Positions 7,794 to 53,958 are shown, numbered from the stretch's first letter. The stretch is DNA of 64,000 nt from Bacteroidota bacterium (GCA_003250355.1 QKGS01000078.1:616-64615); one strand, 5' to 3'. Made by a program: numbers and translations. Notes: generated from the letters alone by a model not told the origin.

Positions 7794-7822
7794 AAAAAGC
7801 TGTCTTATGACAGCTTTTTTTA
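7794..7822 (+). terminator. intrinsic terminator
   Basis: agctgtc-ttat-gacagct stem-loop followed by a T7 run. Confidence 0.75.
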
Positions 7823-7909: not shown

Positions 7910-7973
7910 TTTTAGTATCAAGTATCAAGATATGTGTAGTTTTTTACTTTGTACTTGATACTTGATACTAAAA
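7910..7973. repeat. perfect 20-bp inverted repeat built from tandem heptamer AGTATCA (x2 per arm), 24-nt spacer
   Basis: ttttagtatcaagtatcaag (7910-7929) is the exact reverse complement of cttgatacttgatactaaaa (7954-7973). Confidence 0.85.
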
Positions 7974-30770: not shown

Positions 30771-30873
30771 TTTTTAAATTTTGTTTTTTTGAATAAACTC
30801 CGCAAATATATATTTATTATTCAGGTGTCAAAATTCAATCTAATAATATGTAGTGCATTTTGCGTAAGCTTAA

Positions 30874-31638
30874 CTAATAATTAAGTTTTGCCAATAGCTT
30901 ATTTGCCTTAATTAAATCTTCGGGCGTGTCAACACACAATGTTTCTTCAATTTCTGTTATGCCTATTTTTACTTTGAAGCCATTTGTAATCCAACGCAAC
31001 TGCTCCAACGACTCTGCCTTTTCGATTACTGATGGTTCCAGTTTTATTATCTCAAATAATATATCGGTTCGGTAACCATACAGCCCCATATGACGATAAA
31101 ATATTGCGTGCTCTAACCAATGTTTTTTTGATACATTTTGTACAAATGGTATAGGCGAACGGCTGAAAAGTACGGCATTCATATTGTTATCGACTACTAT
31201 TTTCGCCTCTTTTTCATCGAATATTTGATGATGGTCGCAAATAACCTGCGCCAAGGTTGCTAATTCTGTTTTTCCATTATCGAAACAGGCAACCAAATCG
31301 TCGATCTGCCGGGGATTAAAGAAAGGTTCATCGCCCTGGATATTAATAATATAATCGAATTTGATACCTGTTTCCTCAACAACAATATTAACAGCTTCAG
31401 CGACACGTTCAGTACCTGAACCATGGTCGGGGTCGGTCATTACGGCTTTGCCGCCAAAGCCTACTACTGCATTTACAATACTAATATCGTCGGTTGCAAC
31501 ATAAACATATTCGAGCGATTTTTTACAGTTTTCATAAACGTGCTGAATCATAGGTTTGTCGCCAATCATAGCCAGAGGCTTGCCGGGCAAACGGGTTGAA
31601 GCATATCGTGCTGGAATTATTCCTAGTATTTTCATCAT
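30874..31638 (-). CDS. kdsB: 3-deoxy-manno-octulosonate cytidylyltransferase (CMP-Kdo synthetase)
   Basis: ILGIIPARYASTRLPGKPL, VATDD, SGTERVAEA and IQGDEPF motifs. I start it at MMKILG, because the ORF-track extension (to 31677) translates heptamer-repeat DNA. Confidence 0.9.
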   Translation of the reverse strand: MMKILGIIPARYASTRLPGKPLAMIGDKPMIQHVYENCKKSLEYVYVATDDISIVNAVVGFGGKAVMTDPDHGSGTERVAEAVNIVVEETGIKFDYIINIQGDEPFFNPRQIDDLVACFDNGKTELATLAQVICDHHQIFDEKEAKIVVDNNMNAVLFSRSPIPFVQNVSKKHWLEHAIFYRHMGLYGYRTDILFEIIKLEPSVIEKAESLEQLRWITNGFKVKIGITEIEETLCVDTPEDLIKANKLLAKLNY

Positions 31639-31728
31639 TTTCAGACTTTGAGTAGTGAGACTATGGATAGTGAGCAATATATAAATTTTTATCTCAATAC
31701 TTATATCTCATATCTCAATACTCATATT
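31639..31728. repeat. miniature heptamer palindrome: TGAGTAG-type block followed by an inverted TGAGATA-type block
   Basis: tttgagtagtgagactatggatagtgag ... tatctcaatacttatatctcatatctcaatactcatatt. It uses the same motifs in the same order as the large arrays at 32831..33285. Confidence 0.7.
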
Positions 31729-32814
31729 CTACATTTTTCTATATAAATCCTTTATAATGTCAGCATTTATGTGATTACGCCATTCTTTTCCAAATGCATT
31801 ATCCCACATATGTTCATTTGCAAGTGCTTTAGCTGCCATTACATTAAGTTGCTCATCGGTTACGTTTGCACAAATGCCTTCGGGGATTTCAACTCCTGCT
31901 TTTATTTGCATTTCCTTAAACTTTTTGTAACCTTCGGGATAATATTTTTCAAGCTGATTGAATACAATACAGTTACCAACACCATGGTGAATTCCCAACA
32001 CATGAGCTAATCCGTACGATAAAGCATGACACACTCCTACCTGAGCATAGGTAATACTGTTACCGCCAAGTATAGATGCAACCATAAGTTTTTCATCGGC
32101 TTCAATTCGGCTTAATGAATCGTTCATGAAAACATCTTCGCACATTTCGTTTGATTTTTCAGCGAAAGCTTTTCCCATAGTTGTTATCCATGTTCCTTCG
32201 AGCGATTCTACGTTATGGATAAAACAATCCATTCCGGTGTAAAAACGTTGAGCATCGGGAACGGTATCTAGTAATTCGGGGTCGAATATTATTTCGTCAG
32301 GCATAGTGTAGTCGCACTTAATACCAAGTTTTTTTTCCGGTCCGCTAAGTACAGTAGTCATTGATACCTCAGCACCTGTACCTGAAATAGTAGGTATACA
32401 AATGCAATAAATACCGGGATTTTTAATTTTATCTAACCCCTGATATTCGTGCGAAGCACCACTATTAGTTACCATTAAACGAACAGCTTTACCATAATCC
32501 ATAGCTGTACCGCCTCCCATACCAACAACAACAGAAGGTAATTGCGGGTTATGAGCTTTGATTTGAGCTGCATATTCATCGACCAAACTGGTTTTGGGTT
32601 CAAGAACAGGGTCGATCCAAATAATAAGGTCGCCGGCTATAATCGGAAGCTTAGCTTCAATATTTTTATCTTTGAAATAGATGTCGATCAAATATGCAGT
32701 CCAGCCTTTACCGTTTTCTTTTCTACGGTCAATTAATTGTCCCAAACGGCTTAAGGTACCTTTACCAAAAGCATAGTATCCTGGGTTTATAAAACTTCTA
32801 AAATCGTATAACAT
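31729..32814 (-). CDS. iron-containing (group III) alcohol dehydrogenase family protein, KdnB-like candidate
   Basis: [24 protein letters not shown] and [16 protein letters not shown] metal- and nucleotide-binding motifs of the Fe-ADH family. Confidence 0.8.
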
Positions 32815-32830
32815 TTTTTCTTAGTATGTG

Positions 32831-33089
32831 AGTAATGAGTAATGAGTAATGAGTAATGAGTAATGAGTAGTGAGTAGTGAGTAGTGAGTAGTGAGTAGTG
32901 AGTAGTGAGTAGTGAGTAGTGAGTAGTGAGTAGTGAGTAGTGAGTAGTGAGTAGTGAGTAGTGAGTAATGAGTAGTGAGTAATGAGTAGTGAGTAGTGAG
33001 TAGTGAGTAGTGAGTAATGAGTAGTGAGTAGTGAGTAGTGAGTAGTGAGTAGTGAGTAGTGAGTAGTGAGTAGTGAGTAGTGAGTAGTG
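32831..33089 (+). repeat. tandem heptanucleotide array, 37 x AGTARTG
   Basis: Counted directly: 37 contiguous 7-nt units. The A variant (AGTAATG) occupies units 1-4, 20, 22 and 27, and the rest are AGTAGTG. A degenerate unit precedes at 32823-32830. Confidence 0.97.
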
Positions 33090-33098
33090 TTTCAATTA

Positions 33099-33285
33099 CT
33101 CATATCTCATATCTCATATCTCATATCTCATATCTCATATCTCATATCTCACATCTCATATCTCACATCTCACATCTCATATCTCACATCTCATATCTCA
33201 CATCTCATATCTCATATCTCATATCTCATATCTCATATCTCATATCTCATATCTCATATCTCATATCTCATATCTCATATCTCAT
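33099..33285 (+). repeat. tandem heptanucleotide array, 26 x CTCAYAT plus a partial unit
   Basis: Counted directly: 26 contiguous units, with the C variant (CTCACAT) at units 8, 10, 11, 13 and 15. A 9-nt spacer (tttcaatta, 33090-33098) separates it from the first array. Confidence 0.97.
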
Positions 33286-33302
33286 TACACACTACTAAAA
33301 AT

Positions 33303-34484
33303 CTAACCTAGTATTTTATCAAATGAGTCACAAATTTTCTTCATATCATCATCGGTCCATTTAAGCTGAATAATGATAGAAATTAAACGTCCCACCACTT
33401 CGTCTGATTTTGGGAATTTAATAGTGGCATAATTCTGAGGAGAGCCGAATTTCTGTACACCCACAGGAGCTACGGTTTTCATTTCCTTTATATGCTCCCA
33501 GTTACGGAAATAGTGGTAATTATTGGTAAACCAATAAGCTGCAGGTATTCCGGCAGCAGCCATTTCTTTTGCAACTTTCTCTGCTTCGGTCTGAGTTGGA
33601 AGGAAAATATTCAACATAGTAGCAGAGTCGCCTTTTTCGTCAGGAATATTACGGAACTCTATTTGTGAGAATTTTTTCATGTAGTCTTTAAGAACTTTTT
33701 TATTCTTACGTTGAGTTTCCAATATATAGTCAATTTTACGGAACTGAGCCAATCCAACTGCAGCGTGAAGTTCGCTTATACGTAGGTTCATACCTAAAAC
33801 AGGGTGAGCTTCCATACCTCTGTTATTGCCAATATGGCTATGGCCGTGGTCGGAATATGTATGGCAATTTTCATAAACAGCGTCGTCGTTGGTGATAACA
33901 GCACCCCCCTCGCCTGCTGTAATTATTTTAAAAAAGTCGAACGAAAAACAAGCTGTTTTACCGTAAGTTCCAAGCATTTTACCTTTATAAGAACCACCCA
34001 TAGCCTGTGCTGTATCTTCAATAAGTACTATATTATGCTCTTGGCAAATAGCAATTATCTCATCGAGTTTTGCCATTGAACCACACATATGTACTAATAC
34101 AATTGCCTTAGTATTTGGTGTAATAGCAGCTTTGAAACCTTCAGGTGAAATACAGAGTGTTTCGTCTATTTCTGCAAATACCGGTATAGCACCAATACTT
34201 ATTACTGCTTCAACAGGAGCAATAAAAGTAAAAGGGGGAACAATAACTTCGTCGCCGGCACCAATACCGGCAGCAGTTAAAGCCAATACGTCGGCAGTGG
34301 TTCCGCTGGTTGTCATATGACAGTGCTTAACGCCGTGGAACTTTGCAAATTCTTGTTCGAAAGTTTTAGCTTTCCATATTCCATTACGGATATTATCGTG
34401 ATTGTAACGGAAGAATACTCCTGTTTCCATTACGTCATTTACTTCTTTACGCTCTTCGGCTCCAAATAGTTCTGTACCCGGCAT
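33303..34484 (-). CDS. DegT/DnrJ/EryC1/StrS-family PLP-dependent aminotransferase, KdnA-like candidate
   Basis: 393 aa with TSGTTADVLAL, IEDTAQAMG and FSFDFFKIITAGEGG (PLP-lysine context) motifs. Confidence 0.85.
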   Translation of the reverse strand: MPGTELFGAEERKEVNDVMETGVFFRYNHDNIRNGIWKAKTFEQEFAKFHGVKHCHMTTSGTTADVLALTAAGIGAGDEVIVPPFTFIAPVEAVISIGAIPVFAEIDETLCISPEGFKAAITPNTKAIVLVHMCGSMAKLDEIIAICQEHNIVLIEDTAQAMGGSYKGKMLGTYGKTACFSFDFFKIITAGEGGAVITNDDAVYENCHTYSDHGHSHIGNNRGMEAHPVLGMNLRISELHAAVGLAQFRKIDYILETQRKNKKVLKDYMKKFSQIEFRNIPDEKGDSATMLNIFLPTQTEAEKVAKEMAAAGIPAAYWFTNNYHYFRNWEHIKEMKTVAPVGVQKFGSPQNYATIKFPKSDEVVGRLISIIIQLKWTDDDMKKICDSFDKILG

Positions 34485-42442: not shown

Positions 42443-42489
42443 TTGTTGTATAACTAAATGTGGAATTTATGAAATATGAGAATTTAAAA

Positions 42490-43299
42490 ATGAAAACAAC
42501 AGTGCTAATATTATCAATATGCATTTCTGTTATATTAAACGGACAAACATATAAACGGATAGTTTCACTATCTCCGGCAGCATCATTTAACCTCACAGAG
42601 CTAGGTTGTGAAGATAAAATAGCAGGTGTTACCAGTTATTGCGACCTTGCTGCAAATGAGAATTTGGTGGTAGCTTCGGCTATTTCAATGAATATGGAAA
42701 AAGTGTTGATGCTTCAACCCGATTTGGTTATTTATACTACCATGTTCAAACCTGCTCAAATAGAACGCTTAAAACAAATGGGCATACACACTGAGATGTT
42801 TGCATCGCCTAAAAACTTTGAAGAAACCTGCACCCAATTTATTAGGCTTGGCGAACTGGTTGGCAAGAAAGCTCAAGCACTGCAATATGTTGATTCTGTT
42901 AAGAAAGAAATGGTTTCAATTCAAAATACAATTCCAAAAGGGAAAAAACCGAAAATGTTTATTGAAATAGGTTCAAAACCTTTATTTACTGCTATACCGG
43001 GTACTTTTATGCAAGACTATATTGATGTTATGGGGGGTGTAAATATTGCAGCAGACCAAACATCGGGTACTATATCGCGTGAAAAGGTTATTCAACAAAA
43101 CCCCGATTATATTATTATTGTTACTATGGGTATTGTTAGCCAAAAAGAGAAAGAGATGTGGGAAGGTTATCCTCAGTTAAGTGCCGTTAAAAACAATAAA
43201 GTGTTTATTGTTGATGCTACTATGAGCTGCCGCCCTACTCCTTATAATTTTATTAGTACCATTAAAGAGCTTAACAGGCTTATGTATGGAAAGAGATAA
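42490..43299 (+). CDS. BtuF-like periplasmic cobalamin/metal-chelate binding protein
   Basis: Signal peptide MKTTVLILSICISVILNG, followed by RIVSLSPAASFNLTELG, IAGVTSYCD and LQPDLVIYTT. Confidence 0.75.
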   Translation: MKTTVLILSICISVILNGQTYKRIVSLSPAASFNLTELGCEDKIAGVTSYCDLAANENLVVASAISMNMEKVLMLQPDLVIYTTMFKPAQIERLKQMGIHTEMFASPKNFEETCTQFIRLGELVGKKAQALQYVDSVKKEMVSIQNTIPKGKKPKMFIEIGSKPLFTAIPGTFMQDYIDVMGGVNIAADQTSGTISREKVIQQNPDYIIIVTMGIVSQKEKEMWEGYPQLSAVKNNKVFIVDATMSCRPTPYNFISTIKELNRLMYGKR

Positions 43300-43362
43300 A
43301 TTTGAAAATAAGGGAATTTGGAAATAAAGGAATTTGAGAATATGAAAATTAGGTGATATGTA

Positions 43363-43466
43363 ATGAAATATGAAAAAACGTGTAACCTGCAACTTGATAC
43401 TTGTAGCAATCTTCAGTCGGCAGTCTCCCTGCAACCCTGCAACCTTTCAACCTTTCAACCTTTCCC
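43363..43466. repeat. left copy of an inverted repeat pair (partner 52634..52736): conserved 43-nt core plus degenerate CYTGNAA heptamers
   Basis: aaaaacgtgtaacctgcaacttgatacttgta (43374-43405) equals the reverse complement of 52694-52725 at 31/32 positions. Including the flanks gives 40/43. Confidence 0.9.
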
Positions 43467-43589
43467 AATATTGTTAAAACCCTTCCACATCAATTCCTTT
43501 GCAAATCATTTTATTGATTTTATTGGTCTCAGAATATTTAATCAATATTACTAAAGCACTGTCAAATTATTATTTATATATTTGCCAAC

Positions 43590-43795
43590 GAATTTGGTTC
43601 TTTTCTTAGTTGTATCAATTAAGTAAGATAAAAAGGGAATCCGGTGCTTAGTTAAACTAAAAATCCGGAGCTGTACCCGCAGCTGTGAATCCTACCCGAA
43701 AGGGAAATGACTTTTGAACCGCAATGCCACTGCTCTGATAACTATAGAGTCGGGAAGGCATCGAAAGTTGGGATAAGCCAGAAGACCTGCCATAA
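43590..43795 (+). promoter_or_regulatory. cobalamin (B12) riboswitch
   Basis: aaaagggaatccggtg...aatccggagctgtacccgcagctgtga core, gccactg (43726-43732), gggaaggc, and the B12 box aagccagaagacctgcc (43775-43791). It lies directly upstream of a TonB-dependent receptor. Confidence 0.9.
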
Positions 43796-43848
43796 TTCAT
43801 AACAATTAATTTAATAAAAAGCCTCGGGGTAAAGGTTTTATTAAAGGT

Positions 43849-47996: not shown

Positions 47997-48001
47997 ATGT
48001 A

Positions 48002-48117
48002 GAATTTGAGAATTTGAAAGTTGATAGGAATAAGGATTCTTGTGAGTATTTTTAATTTTCACATTTCCCAATTCCCACTTTTTCACATTTTCACATTTCC
48101 AAATTTCCAAATTTCAA
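48002..48117. repeat. purine-rich GAATTTG-type block followed by a mirrored pyrimidine-rich TTTCCAAA/TTTTCACA block
   Basis: gaatttgagaatttgaaagttgataggaataagg ... ttttcacatttcccaattcccactttttcacattttcacatttccaaatttccaaatttcaag. The two arms are partly complementary if G:U pairs are allowed. Confidence 0.65.
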
Positions 48118-48122
48118 GAAAC

Positions 48123-49121
48123 ATGAAGAAAGAATTACAACACAAAATAGACTTTAAAACCAAGCCGCAAGGTGCTTTAGGACAGTTAGAAGAACTGGCG
48201 TTACAAATAGGACAAATACAAAACACCCTTACGCCCGAGTTGAAGAATCCTACATTTTTGGTATTCGCAGCCGACCATGGTTTAACAGAAGAAAAGATAA
48301 GTACCTTCCCTAAAGAGGTTACTTTCCAAATGGTTATGAACTTTCTTTACGGCGGGGCTGCAATCAATGTATTTTGTAATCAGCACGATATTACCCTAAA
48401 AATAGTTGATGCAGGGGTCGATTACGATTTTCCCGACACATACAAACTTATAAATGCCAAAATTGCTCATGGTACAAAAAACAGCCTTAAAGAGCCGGCA
48501 ATGTCAACCAATGAATGCGAGCAGGCACTTGCAAAAGGAGCAGAACTGGTAAAGGCTGAGGCCGCCGCAGGGTGTAACGTTATTGGCTTTGGCGAAATGG
48601 GAATTGGCAATACATCGGCTGCAGCGCTTATAATGCAAAAAATAACCAAGCTCCCTATTGAACAGTGTGTAGGTGCCGGAACAGGCCTCGATAACGATGG
48701 TATTGACCATAAGACCGAGGTTCTCAGAAAAGTTACACAAAAACACAATGTTACAGCTCCAAAAGATATTCTTGCCGCAGTGGGTGGATTAGAAATTGCA
48801 ATGATGTGTGGTGCTATGCTTGAAGCAAAAAAGCAGAATATGCTTATACTTGTTGACGGTTTTATTGCCACGTCGGCATTTATGGTTGCTAATGAAATAG
48901 ACAAATCAATAAAAGATAACGCCGTATTCGGACACGTATCGAACGAGCAGGGACATAAGCGAATGATTGAGTATTTGGGCGTAAAGCCTATATTAAATAT
49001 GGGCTTACGCCTTGGCGAAGGTACCGGTGCTGCATTAGCTTACCCTTTAATTAAGTCATCGATTGAGTTTCTTAACAAAATGGCAAGCTTTGAGGATGCA
49101 GGGGTATCAGAGTCTAATTAG
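48123..49121 (+). CDS. cobT: nicotinate-nucleotide--dimethylbenzimidazole phosphoribosyltransferase
   Basis: KTKPQGALGQLE, FAADHG, GEMGIGNTS and LGEGTGAAL motifs. Start taken at MKKELQHKID, because the upstream extension translates repeat DNA. Confidence 0.92.
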   Translation: MKKELQHKIDFKTKPQGALGQLEELALQIGQIQNTLTPELKNPTFLVFAADHGLTEEKISTFPKEVTFQMVMNFLYGGAAINVFCNQHDITLKIVDAGVDYDFPDTYKLINAKIAHGTKNSLKEPAMSTNECEQALAKGAELVKAEAAAGCNVIGFGEMGIGNTSAAALIMQKITKLPIEQCVGAGTGLDNDGIDHKTEVLRKVTQKHNVTAPKDILAAVGGLEIAMMCGAMLEAKKQNMLILVDGFIATSAFMVANEIDKSIKDNAVFGHVSNEQGHKRMIEYLGVKPILNMGLRLGEGTGAALAYPLIKSSIEFLNKMASFEDAGVSESN

Positions 49122-49355
49122 GAAATTAGGAAATATGAAAATTAGGGAATGAGAAAAAATAAGAATTTTAGTGTTACCTAGATTTCGCAAGTCATCGGAT
49201 GAATTATTGATTTGGAACCAATTAGCTTTTTAAAGTTGGTGCTTTCTATTTGGTATTCATCCTATGACTATTAGACGATTGTGAAAAATACCTGCGGATT
49301 TTAGGTGTTACTAATTTCCAAATTTTACATTTTCACATTCTCAAATTGAAATTTG
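49121..49355. repeat. cobT-cobS spacer: GGAAATTAGG-type block, about 145-nt insert with 13/14-nt direct repeats, mirrored CTAATTTCC-type block
   Basis: ggaaattag (49121-49129) is the exact complement of ctaatttcc (49311-49319). Direct repeats attttagtgttac (49165-49177) / attttaggtgttac (49298-49311). Internal IR gtcatcggatgaat (49191-49204) / attcatcctatgac (49255-49268). Confidence 0.6.
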
Positions 49356-49376
49356 AATAAACACACAAACAGAATA

Positions 49377-50132
49377 ATGTATCAATTAAAGTTACTACGC
49401 ACAGCAATAATGTTTTACACCCGTATTCCGGTAGGAATCATTAAAGGGTATTCCAATGAAATGGCATCGCAGTCAGTTTCGTATTTTCCATTAGTCGGAG
49501 GAATTATCGGGCTGTTATGTGCAGGAGTATTTTATGCCTTTTCGCTAGTGCTTCCGCAAAATGTAGCAATACTATTAAGTATGGCATTTTCGGTTTATCT
49601 GACCGGAGCATTTCACGAAGATGGCTTTGCCGATTTCTGCGACGGCTTTGGAGGTGGTTACACCAAAGAGCGTGTAATGGAAATAATGAAAGACAGCCGC
49701 ATAGGTGCTTACGGAACCATTGGAATTGTTTTTATGCTTGCCATAAAGTTTTTTGCATTGGTTGAGCTTTCGCAAATGCAGGTGGTATATGCTTTAGTTG
49801 CCGGCCATATTCTTAGCAGAATGGTTACCGCTGTTTTAAGCTTTACTGCCAAATATGTACAGAGCGTTGAAAAAAGCAAACTTAAAGCAGAGCTATCTAC
49901 AAGTAAATTTCAAGGTATGATATTTCCGGTTTTGATAGGACTTGTTCCGGTTGCATGGCTTGGATGGCAGACTGTTGCATTTTATTTAGCAGTAGTATTG
50001 CCCGTGTTTCTTATTTACAGGCGATACATTATAAAGAAAATAGGCGGCTACACCGGCGATGTACTTGGCGCTTTTCAGCAAATAACAGAGGTGATTTTTT
50101 ATTTGAGCTATATTGCTTATTTGGGGTTCTAA
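49377..50132 (+). CDS. cobS: adenosylcobinamide-GDP ribazoletransferase (cobalamin synthase)
   Basis: FYTRIPV, TGAFHEDGFADFCDG and GGYTGDVLGA motifs in a polytopic membrane protein. Confidence 0.9.
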   Translation: MYQLKLLRTAIMFYTRIPVGIIKGYSNEMASQSVSYFPLVGGIIGLLCAGVFYAFSLVLPQNVAILLSMAFSVYLTGAFHEDGFADFCDGFGGGYTKERVMEIMKDSRIGAYGTIGIVFMLAIKFFALVELSQMQVVYALVAGHILSRMVTAVLSFTAKYVQSVEKSKLKAELSTSKFQGMIFPVLIGLVPVAWLGWQTVAFYLAVVLPVFLIYRRYIIKKIGGYTGDVLGAFQQITEVIFYLSYIAYLGF

Positions 50133-50186
50133 GTTGCAGGTTATAGGTTATAGGTTATAGGTTGCAAGTTGCAGGTTCATAGGCTG
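50133..50186 (+). repeat. degenerate heptamer array GTTRYAG (about 7 units)
   Basis: gttgcag gttatag gttatag gttatag gttgcaa gttgcag gttcatag, starting directly after the cobS stop. Confidence 0.85.
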
Positions 50187-51160: not shown

Positions 51161-52648
51161 ATGAAGAATATACAAAATAAAGTAGCTCCCGTAATGTTCG
51201 TAGGAACAGGGTCTGACGTTGGAAAGAGTGTTGTAAATGCAGCATACTGCCGCATATTGTTACAAGACGGTTTTGCACCGGCACCGTTTAAGGCGCAGAA
51301 TATGTCGCTCAATAGCTTTGCTACCCCCGAGGGGCTTGAAATAGGCAGGGCTCAGGCAGTACAAGCCGAAGCGTGCGGTATTCCTTGCTCTGTCGATATG
51401 AACCCCGTACTGCTAAAACCGGTAAGCAACCAAACTGCTCAGGTTGTGTTAAACGGCAAACCTATTGGTAACCAATCGGCAAAAGAGTACTTTCTTGGAA
51501 CCGACCGCGATTATATTTTCGCCCAGGCAAAAAATGCTTTCGACCGCCTTGCGGCAAAATATCATCCCATAGTATTGGAAGGTGCAGGAAGTATATCGGA
51601 GCTGAATCTTAGAAGCAAAGATATTGTTAATATGCGTATGGCAATAGCCACACAAGCTGCCACATTCCTTATTGCCGATATTGACCGTGGCGGTGTATTT
51701 GGCAGTGTTTACGGAACTATTAAGTTACTTGAACCCGAAGAGCGCGCCAGAATTAAGGGTATTATCATAAACAAATTTCGCGGCGATATCGACCTGTTTA
51801 AAGATGGGCGAAAAATGCTCGAAGAACTTACCGGAGTACCTGTGGTTGCAATACTTCCATATTTCACCGATATTAAAATTGAGCAGGAAGATTCTGTTGT
51901 AGTTGACAACTATATGGGGCGTACCGAACAAGGCAAACTCAATATTGCAGTAGTGTTGCTTCGTCATATGAGTAATTTCACTGATTTCAATGCAATGGAA
52001 AAAGTTCCCGGAGTACACCTATTTTATACTGCCGACCCTGTTGAGATTGAAAAAGCCGATGTTGTAATTATTCCCGGCTCTAAAAATACAATATTCGATA
52101 TGCTCGATATTCGCAAAAAAGGGATAGCCAAAGCTATACTCAATGCTCACCATAGCGGAAAGGCAGTATACGGCATTTGCGGAGGCTACCAAATAATGGG
52201 TACCCAAATAAACGACCCTTATGGAATGGAAGGCGATACTCAATCTATCCCCGGATTGGGAATACTCCCTGTTAATACTATCCTGAGTAAAGAAAAAGTT
52301 ACAGAGCAGTGTACATTTACCTTTCAAGGTTATGAACAAAAATGCGAAGGATACGAAATACATATGGGACAAACCCAACGCCTTGGCGGTACTGCCGTAT
52401 GCAATATTAACGGCAAAGAGGGCGACGGTTGTTTCTTAAACCCCCAAACATGGGGAACATACATACACGGTATACTCGATAACAAAGCCGTTATTGATTA
52501 TATTCTTGAACACAACGGAGTAACAGAGCGAACAGAGGCATTTGATTATGCAGCATTCAAGGAAGAGCAATACAACAAACTTGCCGATCATGTGCGCGCA
52601 AATACCGATATGGAGTTGTTTTATGACTTGATAAAGGTTGAAGGGTAG
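51161..52648 (+). CDS. cobQ: cobyric acid synthase
   Basis: MFVGTGSDVGKS, FKAQNMSLNS and INKFRGD motifs, plus a C-terminal GATase with ICGGYQIMG and H..IHG. Confidence 0.92.
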   Translation: MKNIQNKVAPVMFVGTGSDVGKSVVNAAYCRILLQDGFAPAPFKAQNMSLNSFATPEGLEIGRAQAVQAEACGIPCSVDMNPVLLKPVSNQTAQVVLNGKPIGNQSAKEYFLGTDRDYIFAQAKNAFDRLAAKYHPIVLEGAGSISELNLRSKDIVNMRMAIATQAATFLIADIDRGGVFGSVYGTIKLLEPEERARIKGIIINKFRGDIDLFKDGRKMLEELTGVPVVAILPYFTDIKIEQEDSVVVDNYMGRTEQGKLNIAVVLLRHMSNFTDFNAMEKVPGVHLFYTADPVEIEKADVVIIPGSKNTIFDMLDIRKKGIAKAILNAHHSGKAVYGICGGYQIMGTQINDPYGMEGDTQSIPGLGILPVNTILSKEKVTEQCTFTFQGYEQKCEGYEIHMGQTQRLGGTAVCNINGKEGDGCFLNPQTWGTYIHGILDNKAVIDYILEHNGVTERTEAFDYAAFKEEQYNKLADHVRANTDMELFYDLIKVEG

Positions 52649-52736
52649 GTTGAAGGGTTACAGGTTACAAGAATACTGGAGACTGGAGACTGTTACAAGT
52701 ATCAAGTTGCAGATTACACGTTTTTGCATAATTCAT
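52634..52736. repeat. right copy of the inverted repeat pair (partner 43363..43466)
   Basis: ggttgaaggg x2, ggttacag/gttacaag, actggag x2, then tacaagtatcaagttgcagattacacgttttt (52694-52725). It begins inside the last codons of cobQ. Confidence 0.9.
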
Positions 52737-53787: not shown

Positions 53788-53844
53788 ATGCTGGACACAG
53801 TATTCTGGATTCGTGACATTGGACACTTGATGGCAGGTTTAAAG

Positions 53845-53958
53845 CCCCAAGGGGGCGATATATAATAGCCCGGTGCGAAGCGCCGGGTGATAATACGAAT
53901 TAAAAAAGCGATGCAAGCAGAGCGGTATCTTTGAAAGAACAAAGTTATTATGCATCGC
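53845..53958 (+). ncRNA. about 112-nt structured repeat element, copy 2
   Basis: cccc-aa-ggggg; cccggtgc-gaa-gcgccggg; gcgatgca...tgcatcgc (8 bp). Relative to copy 1, the third stem changes at 4 paired positions while keeping complementarity. Confidence 0.5.

Follow-up and report, generated by a model that had tools for sequence, protein, structure and literature searches.

Convergent heptanucleotide arrays in the kdnA-kdnB spacer of a Bacteroidota bacterium as possible arms of an intercistronic mRNA hairpin

To our knowledge, hmw of Haemophilus influenzae is the sole heptamer array for which a mechanism has been resolved experimentally. Heptanucleotide repeats are given as the most abundant class of long simple-sequence repeats (SSRs) by Mrazek (2007), as cited in MacGregor (2015; PMC4679880). 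Arrays of TAACTGA and other heptamers have been described in Beggiatoaceae, Cyanobacteria and five Bacteroidetes; in the latter, intergenic arrays reach up to 43 copies, and the same spacer is array-free in close relatives (MacGregor, 2015; PMC4679880). Each Xanthomonas genome carries 70-75 convergent heptamer pairs, in which the G-rich strand is sense within 50 bp after stop codons and antisense within 50 bp before start codons, and which are depleted between divergent genes (Rehm, 2015; PMC4692102). For hmw1A/hmw2A of H. influenzae, expression is inversely proportional to the repeat number and requires a hairpin and RNase III (Rapun-Araiz et al., 2025; PMC12721329). Here, we report two heptamer arrays, of 37 and 26 units, that face each other in the spacer between a kdnA-like aminotransferase gene and kdnB in 64,000 nucleotides of DNA from a Bacteroidota bacterium (GCA_003250355.1, QKGS01000078.1:616-64615; hereafter the window). 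By its sequence, the pair belongs to a known class, the intergenic heptanucleotide tandem repeats of the LSSR/STRR type, to which it adds a large new example: its 7-nt units stand head to tail in many copies of high identity, it is intergenic and missing from relatives, it follows the orientation rule of the class and it forms a convergent pair, G-rich then C-rich. The anatomy, class membership, orientation and absence from relatives are established below. We favour, at a probability of roughly 0.45, the reading that the arrays may be slippage-grown arms of an intercistronic mRNA hairpin, of the convergent-pair heptamer class, that would regulate kdnB post-transcriptionally.

Like the GGGAATC pairs of Xanthomonas (PMC4692102), the window arrays consist of intergenic 7-nt tandem units in convergent pairs on opposite strands; in both, the G-rich strand is sense after stops and antisense before starts, placement between divergent genes is rare, and the repeats are transcribed or likely so. 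Nevertheless, two differences can be named. The first is the motif, as TGAGTAR and TGAGATR cannot form a G-quadruplex and the host is an AT-rich member of the Bacteroidota. The second is size: the Xanthomonas repeats prefer four units, whereas the window arrays are far longer and their arms are ~57-71% complementary. The arrays of MacGregor (PMC4679880) are likewise long Bacteroidetes intergenic heptamers that are missing in relatives and stand in 'forward' orientation just before starts, and the TAACTGA unit resembles our array 1 in mRNA sense (YTACTCA); however, nearly all of them are direct repeats (with one inverted case), and neither a paired convergent architecture nor a hairpin is described. 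The hmw1A/hmw2A element (PMC12721329) resembles the window in that a 7-nt repeat precedes a gene for a surface structure, in what for the window would be the transcribed leader, and its long two-arm hairpin may be compared with the one predicted here. In hmw, just one arm is a repeat array and the arms are pyrimidine-rich then G-rich, opposite to the order found here; moreover, hmw is a proven phase-variable locus of a host-adapted pathogen, whereas the window is known from sequence alone. An earlier description of the window (the sequence-only reading) had proposed the STRR heptamers of heterocystous cyanobacteria as the nearest analogy, and aptly so, as many cyanobacteria carry the same motif class. 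The STRR elements are tandem heptamers dispersed in intergenic DNA, but their host is cyanobacterial and their sequences are canonical, and the window arrays are not members of that named family. The companion claim, that such arrays were undescribed in Bacteroidota, has to be given up: five Bacteroidetes in PMC4679880 have long intergenic heptamer arrays, at least about 58 Bacteroidota loci are among the matches listed by our own scan, and convergent pairs with the same positional rule are on record in PMC4692102. The REP/BIME elements of enterobacteria are also imperfect palindromes outside genes, located between neighbours of the same direction, and can shield upstream mRNA or alter how adjacent genes are expressed, but they are dispersed ~35-nt consensus copies mobilised by RAYT transposases. 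We rejected a REP/BIME (REPIN) assignment because the window units are tandem rather than dispersed palindromes, with no dispersed consensus and no RAYT among the neighbour genes scanned. A CRISPR array was rejected because the 7-nt units are contiguous and lack unique spacers (CRISPR repeats measure 23-50 nt), and a MITE was rejected on anatomy.

Array 1 comprises 37 exact TGAGTAR units on the plus strand at 32829-33087 (32831-33089 when read as AGTARTG), preceded by one degenerate unit at 32823-32828; its variant pattern, aaaaaGGGGGGGGGGGGGGaGaGGGGaGGGGGGGGGG, falls into the unit blocks aaaaa-G14-a-G-a-G4-a-G10. Array 2 comprises 26 exact CTCAYAT units on the plus strand at 33099-33280, with a 5-nt partial unit up to 33285, and has the variant pattern TTTTTTTcTccTcTcTTTTTTTTTTT, or T7-c-T-cc-T-c-T-c-T11 in unit blocks. 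A 9-nt gap (33090-33098) separates them, and the central non-repeat junction TGTTTCAATTA (33088-33098) is the loop of the hairpin predicted below. Tandem Repeats Finder scored the arrays at 469 and 339, with 96% and 95% matches, respectively, and the longest perfectly periodic stretch is ~104 nt. The spacer of 488 nt (32815-33302), bounded by the kdnB ATG (32814) and the kdnA stop (33303-33305), is filled by the arrays over 446 nt (91%). Elsewhere in the 64 kb, TGAGTAG occurs just 2+2 times, which excludes a chance origin. In mRNA sense, that of the minus strand, array 2 (33099-33285) begins 17 nt 3' of the kdnA stop and reads (AURUGAG)n, a G-type repeat with stops and AUGs in all three frames; array 1 (32829-33087) ends 14 nt 5' of the kdnB ATG and reads (YUACUCA)n, a C-type repeat whose majority unit is free of G and which has start or stop codons in no frame. 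Open reading frames across the arrays (32787-33095 on the minus strand, 102 amino acids; 33080-33298 and 33087-33311 on the plus strand) arise because the C-type strand is open in all frames, and were dismissed as spurious. The sequence-only reading had the unit counts, gap and spacer length right, as well as the clustering of variant units, which is evident from the blocks in both arrays, and the 5-codon mini-ORF in array 2 (AUG AGA UAU GAG AUA UGA), which direct reading of the mRNA strand recovers. Its repeat tract does extend from 32823, but the unit there is degenerate and perfect units begin only at 32829/32831; the 18 nt it allowed between array 1 and the ATG of the iron-containing alcohol dehydrogenase (Fe-ADH) gene are actually 14-16 nt.

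The two arrays share an RTGAG core, strictly kept in all 63 units, differ by TA versus AT and are inverted relative to each other. Exact complements of array-1 units bracket array 2, with TTACTCA at its inner edge (33095-33101) and CACTACT at its outer edge (33290-33296), which suggests that the right arm was originally complementary to array 1 and that a variant unit then expanded within it. These observations agree with the earlier view of the arrays as diverged inverted forms of one motif that face each other. That view also held the sole polymorphic position to be equivalent in both arrays, and in the predicted plus-strand hairpin each of the 27 helical segments indeed sets the R of array 1 opposite the Y of array 2, which would explain why the polymorphic sites fall at the same place. 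Covariation between R and Y was not significant, and the lack of A-C clashes depends on the register picked by minimum free energy (MFE).

Folded as RNA in mRNA sense, 32800-33310 has an MFE of -151 kcal/mol against -105 +/- 5 kcal/mol for shuffled sequences (z -8.8); the plus strand gives -203 kcal/mol (z -12.3) as RNA and z -8.6 as DNA. The predicted fold is one interrupted hairpin of ~480 nt, with helices of 4-5 bp every 7 nt and 2x2 or 3x3 loops between them, and the mRNA of the spacer probably folds into one such giant hairpin. According to the MFE pair list and cofolding, it is closed by a near-perfect 20-bp clamp in which 33301-33281 pairs with 32818-32839, worth -23 kcal/mol alone. The 5' strand of this predicted clamp (33281-33301, minus strand) begins 2 nt after the kdnA stop and includes the array-1-type unit AGUAGUG; the 3' strand (32818-32839, minus strand) consists of the degenerate unit and the initial units of array 1 and stops 3 nt short of the kdnB AUG, so that the kdnB leader is predicted to be sequestered from -4 to -25.

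A scan for (TGAGWWR)x4 in one representative genome per species, of the kind that the earlier description had called for, found the motif class at 120 or more loci of many phyla, as assigned by record title. The source genome is not among the matches listed, and all counts in this paragraph refer to those matches. At least about 58 loci are from Bacteroidota, including Flavobacterium, Chryseobacterium, Hymenobacter, Sphingobacterium, Prevotella and Alistipes, and at least 24 are from Cyanobacteria; the remainder belong to Gemmatimonadota, Chloroflexota, Acidobacteriota, Planctomycetota and some Proteobacteria. Motifs vary widely between arrays and genomes, and in free-living bacteria the arrays adjoin genes of all sorts. 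Where two period-7 arrays are neighbours (<=300 nt apart), at least 26 pairs are inverted (16 with at most one mismatch) versus at least nine direct, and all 23 inverted pairs with scorable G/C skew are G-rich then C-rich, with none reversed; G-then-C pairs, together with TGAG-class arrays, also occur in Nostoc, Calothrix, Rivularia and Anabaena. The window pair is likewise G then C, on both strands. Inverted pairs often abut the flanking codons and lie in convergent (eight), co-directional (12) and divergent (one) spacers; for all arrays, convergent spacers outnumber divergent ones by 52 to 16. Close to stops (50 nt or less), arrays read in the direction of the gene concerned are mostly G-type, by 87:23, whereas close to starts (50 nt or less) the sense reading is mostly C-type, by 33:9 (Fisher p ~1e-10 for this stop/start orientation rule). 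The rule is kept by unpaired arrays alone (55:17 and 20:7) and where stop-codon content is equal on both strands. Stop-codon content was thus ruled out as the sole cause of orientation, since the polarity is 25:9 when both strands or neither have stops and since the Xanthomonas unit has none. Both halves of the rule hold in the window, where array 2 is G-type after the kdnA stop and array 1 is C-type before the kdnB start; arrays that face each other are therefore the standard arrangement of the class. The closest structural twin among the matches listed is from a Psychromonas metagenome-assembled genome (L046, 165-499), in which a degenerate G-type array of ~18 units starts from a stop codon and, 6 nt on, gives way to a C-type array (CATTACT, 28 units or more) that runs to the contig end, with arms diverged as in the window. 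At another locus, in Hymenobacter piscis (L069, 5926-6200), a REP-like perfect palindrome, GGAACGTCATCCTGAGCGAAGCGAAGGATCC..., is prolonged on either side by heptamer arrays, GTGAGAA x7 and TTCTCAC x15, and the structure begins at the upstream gene's stop codon.

The same spacer was compared in three Marinilabiliaceae-like relatives (L002, L003 and L004; ~70% protein identity). All three have the gene order kdsA-kpsF-kdnA-kdnB-kdsB, with kdsA and kpsF standing where the window has ribBA, and their kdnA-kdnB spacers measure 188, 144 and 123 nt and carry no arrays. Two of the three, L002 and L003, have a strong terminator-like hairpin and then a T-run directly after kdnA. With the orthologous spacer array-free in all three, the comparison makes the arrays a lineage-specific expansion, at a site where relatives often have a 3'-end hairpin. 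In L003 (Labilibacter sediminis), whose kdnA is followed by such a terminator-like hairpin, a small heptamer repeat of another motif (AACTTTY x ~4.5, 2961-2993) stands directly before the kdnB ATG.

The minus strand holds all genes between 27.6 and 39.7 kb, in the transcription order LptF/G, GT1 and GT2 glycosyltransferases, RibBA, a DegT-family aminotransferase, the arrays, an Fe-ADH-family protein, KdsB, a flippase-like protein and a PorE-like OmpA protein. The upstream gene (33303-34484, minus strand; stop UAG at 33305-33303) encodes a kdnA-like DegT/DnrJ/EryC1 aminotransferase (Pfam PF01041, E 1.4e-89) in the cassette position that it has in the relatives. The downstream gene, kdnB (31729-32814, minus strand; Pfam PF00465/PF25137), encodes an Fe-ADH-family 3-deoxy-manno-octulosonate (Kdo) 8-oxidase, and its homologues at 48-55% identity carry the JGI name Kdo 8-oxidase. 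The third cassette gene is kdsB, for CMP-Kdo synthetase (30874-31638, minus strand; NCBIfam kdsB models), and its ATG at 31638 gives 254 amino acids, compared with 251-255 in the relatives. Work on Shewanella by Gattis et al. in 2013 reportedly assigned the pathway to 8-amino-Kdo (Kdo8N) to an aminotransferase and oxidase pair, KdnA/KdnB. Following that pathway, we take the pair that flanks the arrays to be KdnA/KdnB, so that the arrays would separate two enzymes of one pathway. The kdnA-kdnB-kdsB cassette (30874-34484), for Kdo8N modification of lipopolysaccharide (LPS), has ribBA upstream of kdnA in the window; the earlier placement of the arrays between minus-strand LPS genes is borne out, and Pfam and NCBIfam matches and named homologues specify the Kdo8N gene pair. 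PorE/CHU_0125 profile models match window genes, and the nearest homologues are from Marinilabiliaceae (~70% identity); both place the host in the Bacteroidota. The only exact Bacteroidetes promoter consensus of the gene cluster, at 30803-30832 on the minus strand, stands upstream of the flippase-like gene; this suggests a transcription unit that closes with kdsB. No Rfam family reached its gathering score in or near the kdnA-kdnB spacer.

The sequence-only reading had listed as candidate roles a phase-variable expression switch, an mRNA processing or stability element and a protein-binding array; the structure predictions lean towards an RNA hairpin. In the mechanism that we favour, replication slippage would have grown both arrays between kdnA and kdnB in a single Marinilabiliales-like lineage. 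We infer three steps: read-through transcription of the arrays, formation of the fold in vivo and an effect on expression. The kdnB-kdsB message would be transcribed through both arrays, probably so because no Bacteroidetes promoter consensus (TTTG...TAnnTTTG) was found in the kdnA-kdnB spacer; a sigma-70 scan of the same spacer also gave nothing convincing. The transcript would then fold into the giant interrupted hairpin, with its clamp set 2 nt behind the kdnA stop and 3 nt ahead of the kdnB AUG, which would mask the kdnB leader and draw stop and start together. A ribosome terminating at the kdnA stop could melt the clamp, and kdnB translation would thereby be coupled to that of kdnA; alternatively, the effect may be double-stranded RNA processing or 3'-end protection, as may be compared with the heptamer hairpin in the 5'-untranslated region of H. 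influenzae hmw. The arrays would be the expandable interior of the clamp hairpin and, since the arms pair, the spacer could lengthen without separating stop and start in space. In a bolder form of this mechanism, which we hold to be improbable, the clamp hairpin from stop to start would tie the translation (or processing) of kdnB to kdnA, the array pair would be its hypermutable inner part and the arm imbalance (26 versus 37) would act as a heritable Kdo8N LPS rheostat; the 23:0 cross-phylum polarity among the matches listed, Rho-less cyanobacteria included, could then express a general and hitherto undescribed principle by which such arrays are fitted into operons.

Several points weigh against the hairpin mechanism. 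Because the helices are of 4-5 bp with 2x2 or 3x3 loops, recognition of the predicted fold by RNase III is doubtful; there are many competing alternative pairing registers, and the arms are unequal, at 26 versus 37 units. Arrays that grow in a short spacer abut both genes automatically, so that the stop-to-start geometry is partly a by-product. As judged from the gene neighbourhoods compared, the element is dispensable for the pathway, since it is missing from the closest relatives. Arm copy numbers of pairs look uncorrelated among the matches listed, which argues against strong selection for pairing. Finally, the promoter argument rests solely on the absence of one consensus, and the gene calls of the census are crude longest-ORF calls with arrays masked.

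Some of these points lead to the main competing explanation, which we regard as unlikely on balance though it deserves serious weight, namely that the arrays are a neutral by-product of slippage: a tolerated, microsatellite-like expansion in a spacer that is not essential, with no function of its own and with an orientation that would reflect only a G-poor leader background and purifying selection on leaders against G, AUG and stop-rich sequence. The array-free orthologous spacer of the three relatives is as expected from this, as are the blocks of identical units, which are typical of recent slippage, and the uncorrelated arms. The sporadic occurrence across loci and phyla among the matches listed points the same way, an observation also made by MacGregor (2015; PMC4679880). 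The background of the window already shows the same weak G/C polarity, with 14.3% C and 10.6% G in the 40 nt before starts, and 14.4% G and 13.0% C in the 40 nt after stops. Against neutrality stand the excess of inverted over direct neighbours (at least 26 versus at least nine) with the strict 23:0 polarity among the matches listed, the near-perfect 20-bp clamp that lies outside the pure arrays, the recurrence of the same design in the kdnB-kdsB spacer and several other spacers of the window, and the finding that repeat-bearing loci in Xanthomonas are more conserved than controls (Rehm, 2015; PMC4692102).

Phase variation is distinctly less probable. By analogy with hmw1A/hmw2A, gain or loss of 7-nt units would alter kdnB-kdsB expression and hence Kdo8N on LPS. 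The analogy draws on a heptamer upstream of a surface-structure gene with a long predicted leader hairpin, on the inverse tracking of hmw output with repeat number via hairpin and RNase III (PMC12721329), and on the clustered variant units, which suggest ongoing expansion or contraction. However, like arrays adjoin genes of every sort in free-living bacteria among the matches listed, and earlier surveys saw no functional pattern. No copy-number variation was observed either, as no second copy of the locus was found in the collections searched: two metagenome scans, one for the central junction and one for the junction between kdnA and the array, gave no match each, and an exact-protein look-up for other assemblies had no record of kdnB and, for kdnA, yielded a single contig of a k=31 Logan assembly, which breaks off within array 2. 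The gene kdsB is generally essential for LPS. It lies downstream in the same apparent unit, so an off state is unlikely.

About equally improbable is a transcription terminator or insulator that would halt or pause polymerase from either side and replace the intrinsic terminator of the relatives, two of which have terminator-like hairpins at this very site. Other points in its favour come from other genomes: among the matches listed, array pairs preferentially follow the 3' ends of genes, with eight of them in convergent spacers, arrays prefer convergent to divergent spacers (52 versus 16), and in Xanthomonas heptamer repeats coincide with transcript starts or stops more often than controls do (PMC4692102). 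At the window locus itself, no T-run follows either arm and a terminator scan of 32815-33302 was empty, so that an intrinsic, Rho-independent terminator was rejected. In addition, no kdnB promoter was detectable downstream of the arrays, and full termination would thus silence kdnB-kdsB. A Rho-based version, with rut-type Rho loading behind the polarity, is unlikely to be general, since the same G-then-C pairs appear among the matches listed from cyanobacteria, which are described as lacking Rho (PMC12642595).

It is very unlikely that the arrays serve as a binding platform that titrates or recruits a sequence-specific protein with affinity for single-stranded RNA or DNA (of the S1, cold-shock or CsrA-like kind), as MacGregor (2015; PMC4679880) proposed for TAACTGA, a heptamer just before start codons. 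The strictly kept RTGAG core of the 63 units would suit such a partner, and reporter work on Nostoc recO/recF also invokes one, but no candidate protein is linked to the locus, and the wide differences in motif among arrays and genomes (matches listed) speak against one dedicated binder. An assembly artefact, in the arrays or in their copy numbers, hardly deserves credence: the copy number rests on one assembly, and the k=31 Logan assembly of run SRR7216773, with an identical kdnA, breaks a few units into array 2 because the repeat is longer than k, which confirms the array start and not the copy number; yet that independent assembly reaches the first units with an identical flank, the irregular mix of variant units is unlike a collapsed or looped repeat, a periodic stretch of ~104 nt is resolvable by common large k-mers or reads, and comparable arrays stand in many isolate genomes among the matches listed.

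Elsewhere in the 64 kb there is no second long array, only short period-7 and period-8 repeats of the same design. A miniature, degenerate version occupies the kdnB-kdsB spacer next door (31639-31728, minus strand), with TGAGATA/TGAGTAT-type units after the stop and CTCACTA/CTACTCA-type units before the start. Its predicted hairpin extends from the kdnB stop codon to 3 nt short of the kdsB AUG (z about -3; -3.2), and it is the only other intergenic site in the window with 1.5-unit matches to either motif. The same layout, with short-period G-type repeats behind a stop and their C-type complements ahead of the following start, recurs in several further spacers of the window. In one that separates two plus-strand genes and lies downstream of a canonical terminator (~7797-7822), a perfect inverted mini heptamer pair, (AGTATCA)x2.3 at 7914-7929 and (TGATACT)x2.6 at 7952-7969, is predicted to form a hairpin of 20 bp or more (z -6.9). 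Period-8 repeats at 48001-48017 with 48055-48115, and at 49116-49167 with 49313-49347, follow the same design, with the G-type units AGAATTTG and AATTAGGA directly after the stop and the complementary C-type units ATTTCCAC and AATTTTCA directly before the next start; the spacer at 49118-49356 folds as a single hairpin in prediction (z -4.3). A purine-rich 16-mer repeat (43299-43342) follows the stop of the gene at 42460-43299, and a CAACCTTT x4 repeat (43427-43464) is closely followed by a cobalamin riboswitch (43578-43808; 88.8 bits in Rfam); the spacer that holds these two repeats gave no significant fold. G-rich heptamer-like repeats of the AGGTTAT/AGGTTGC/AGGTTGA type, unpaired, begin at or just after the stops of two plus-strand genes (50132-50180 and 52635-52700), in line with the rule that G-type repeats follow stops. 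A borderline Rfam match to the small RNA Acido-Lenti-1 was recorded at 53843-53887 on the minus strand (37.7 bits versus a gathering score of 37).

Among the long simple-sequence repeats of prokaryotes, heptamer arrays are the most common, and their function has essentially been worked out at one Haemophilus locus. The present locus is an unusually large and clean example, placed between two enzymes of one pathway, with a miniature next door and array-free orthologous spacers for comparison, and it is a good test bed for paired arrays as an RNA hairpin, be it in coupling, processing or insulation. What is new here is modest: cross-phylum statistics on polarity, and an extension of the Xanthomonas rule to motifs unable to form G-quadruplexes, which argues against G-quadruplex formation as the general explanation. 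If the rheostat were true, the pair would provide heritable tuning of the Kdo8N modification of LPS in an environmental member of the Bacteroidota.

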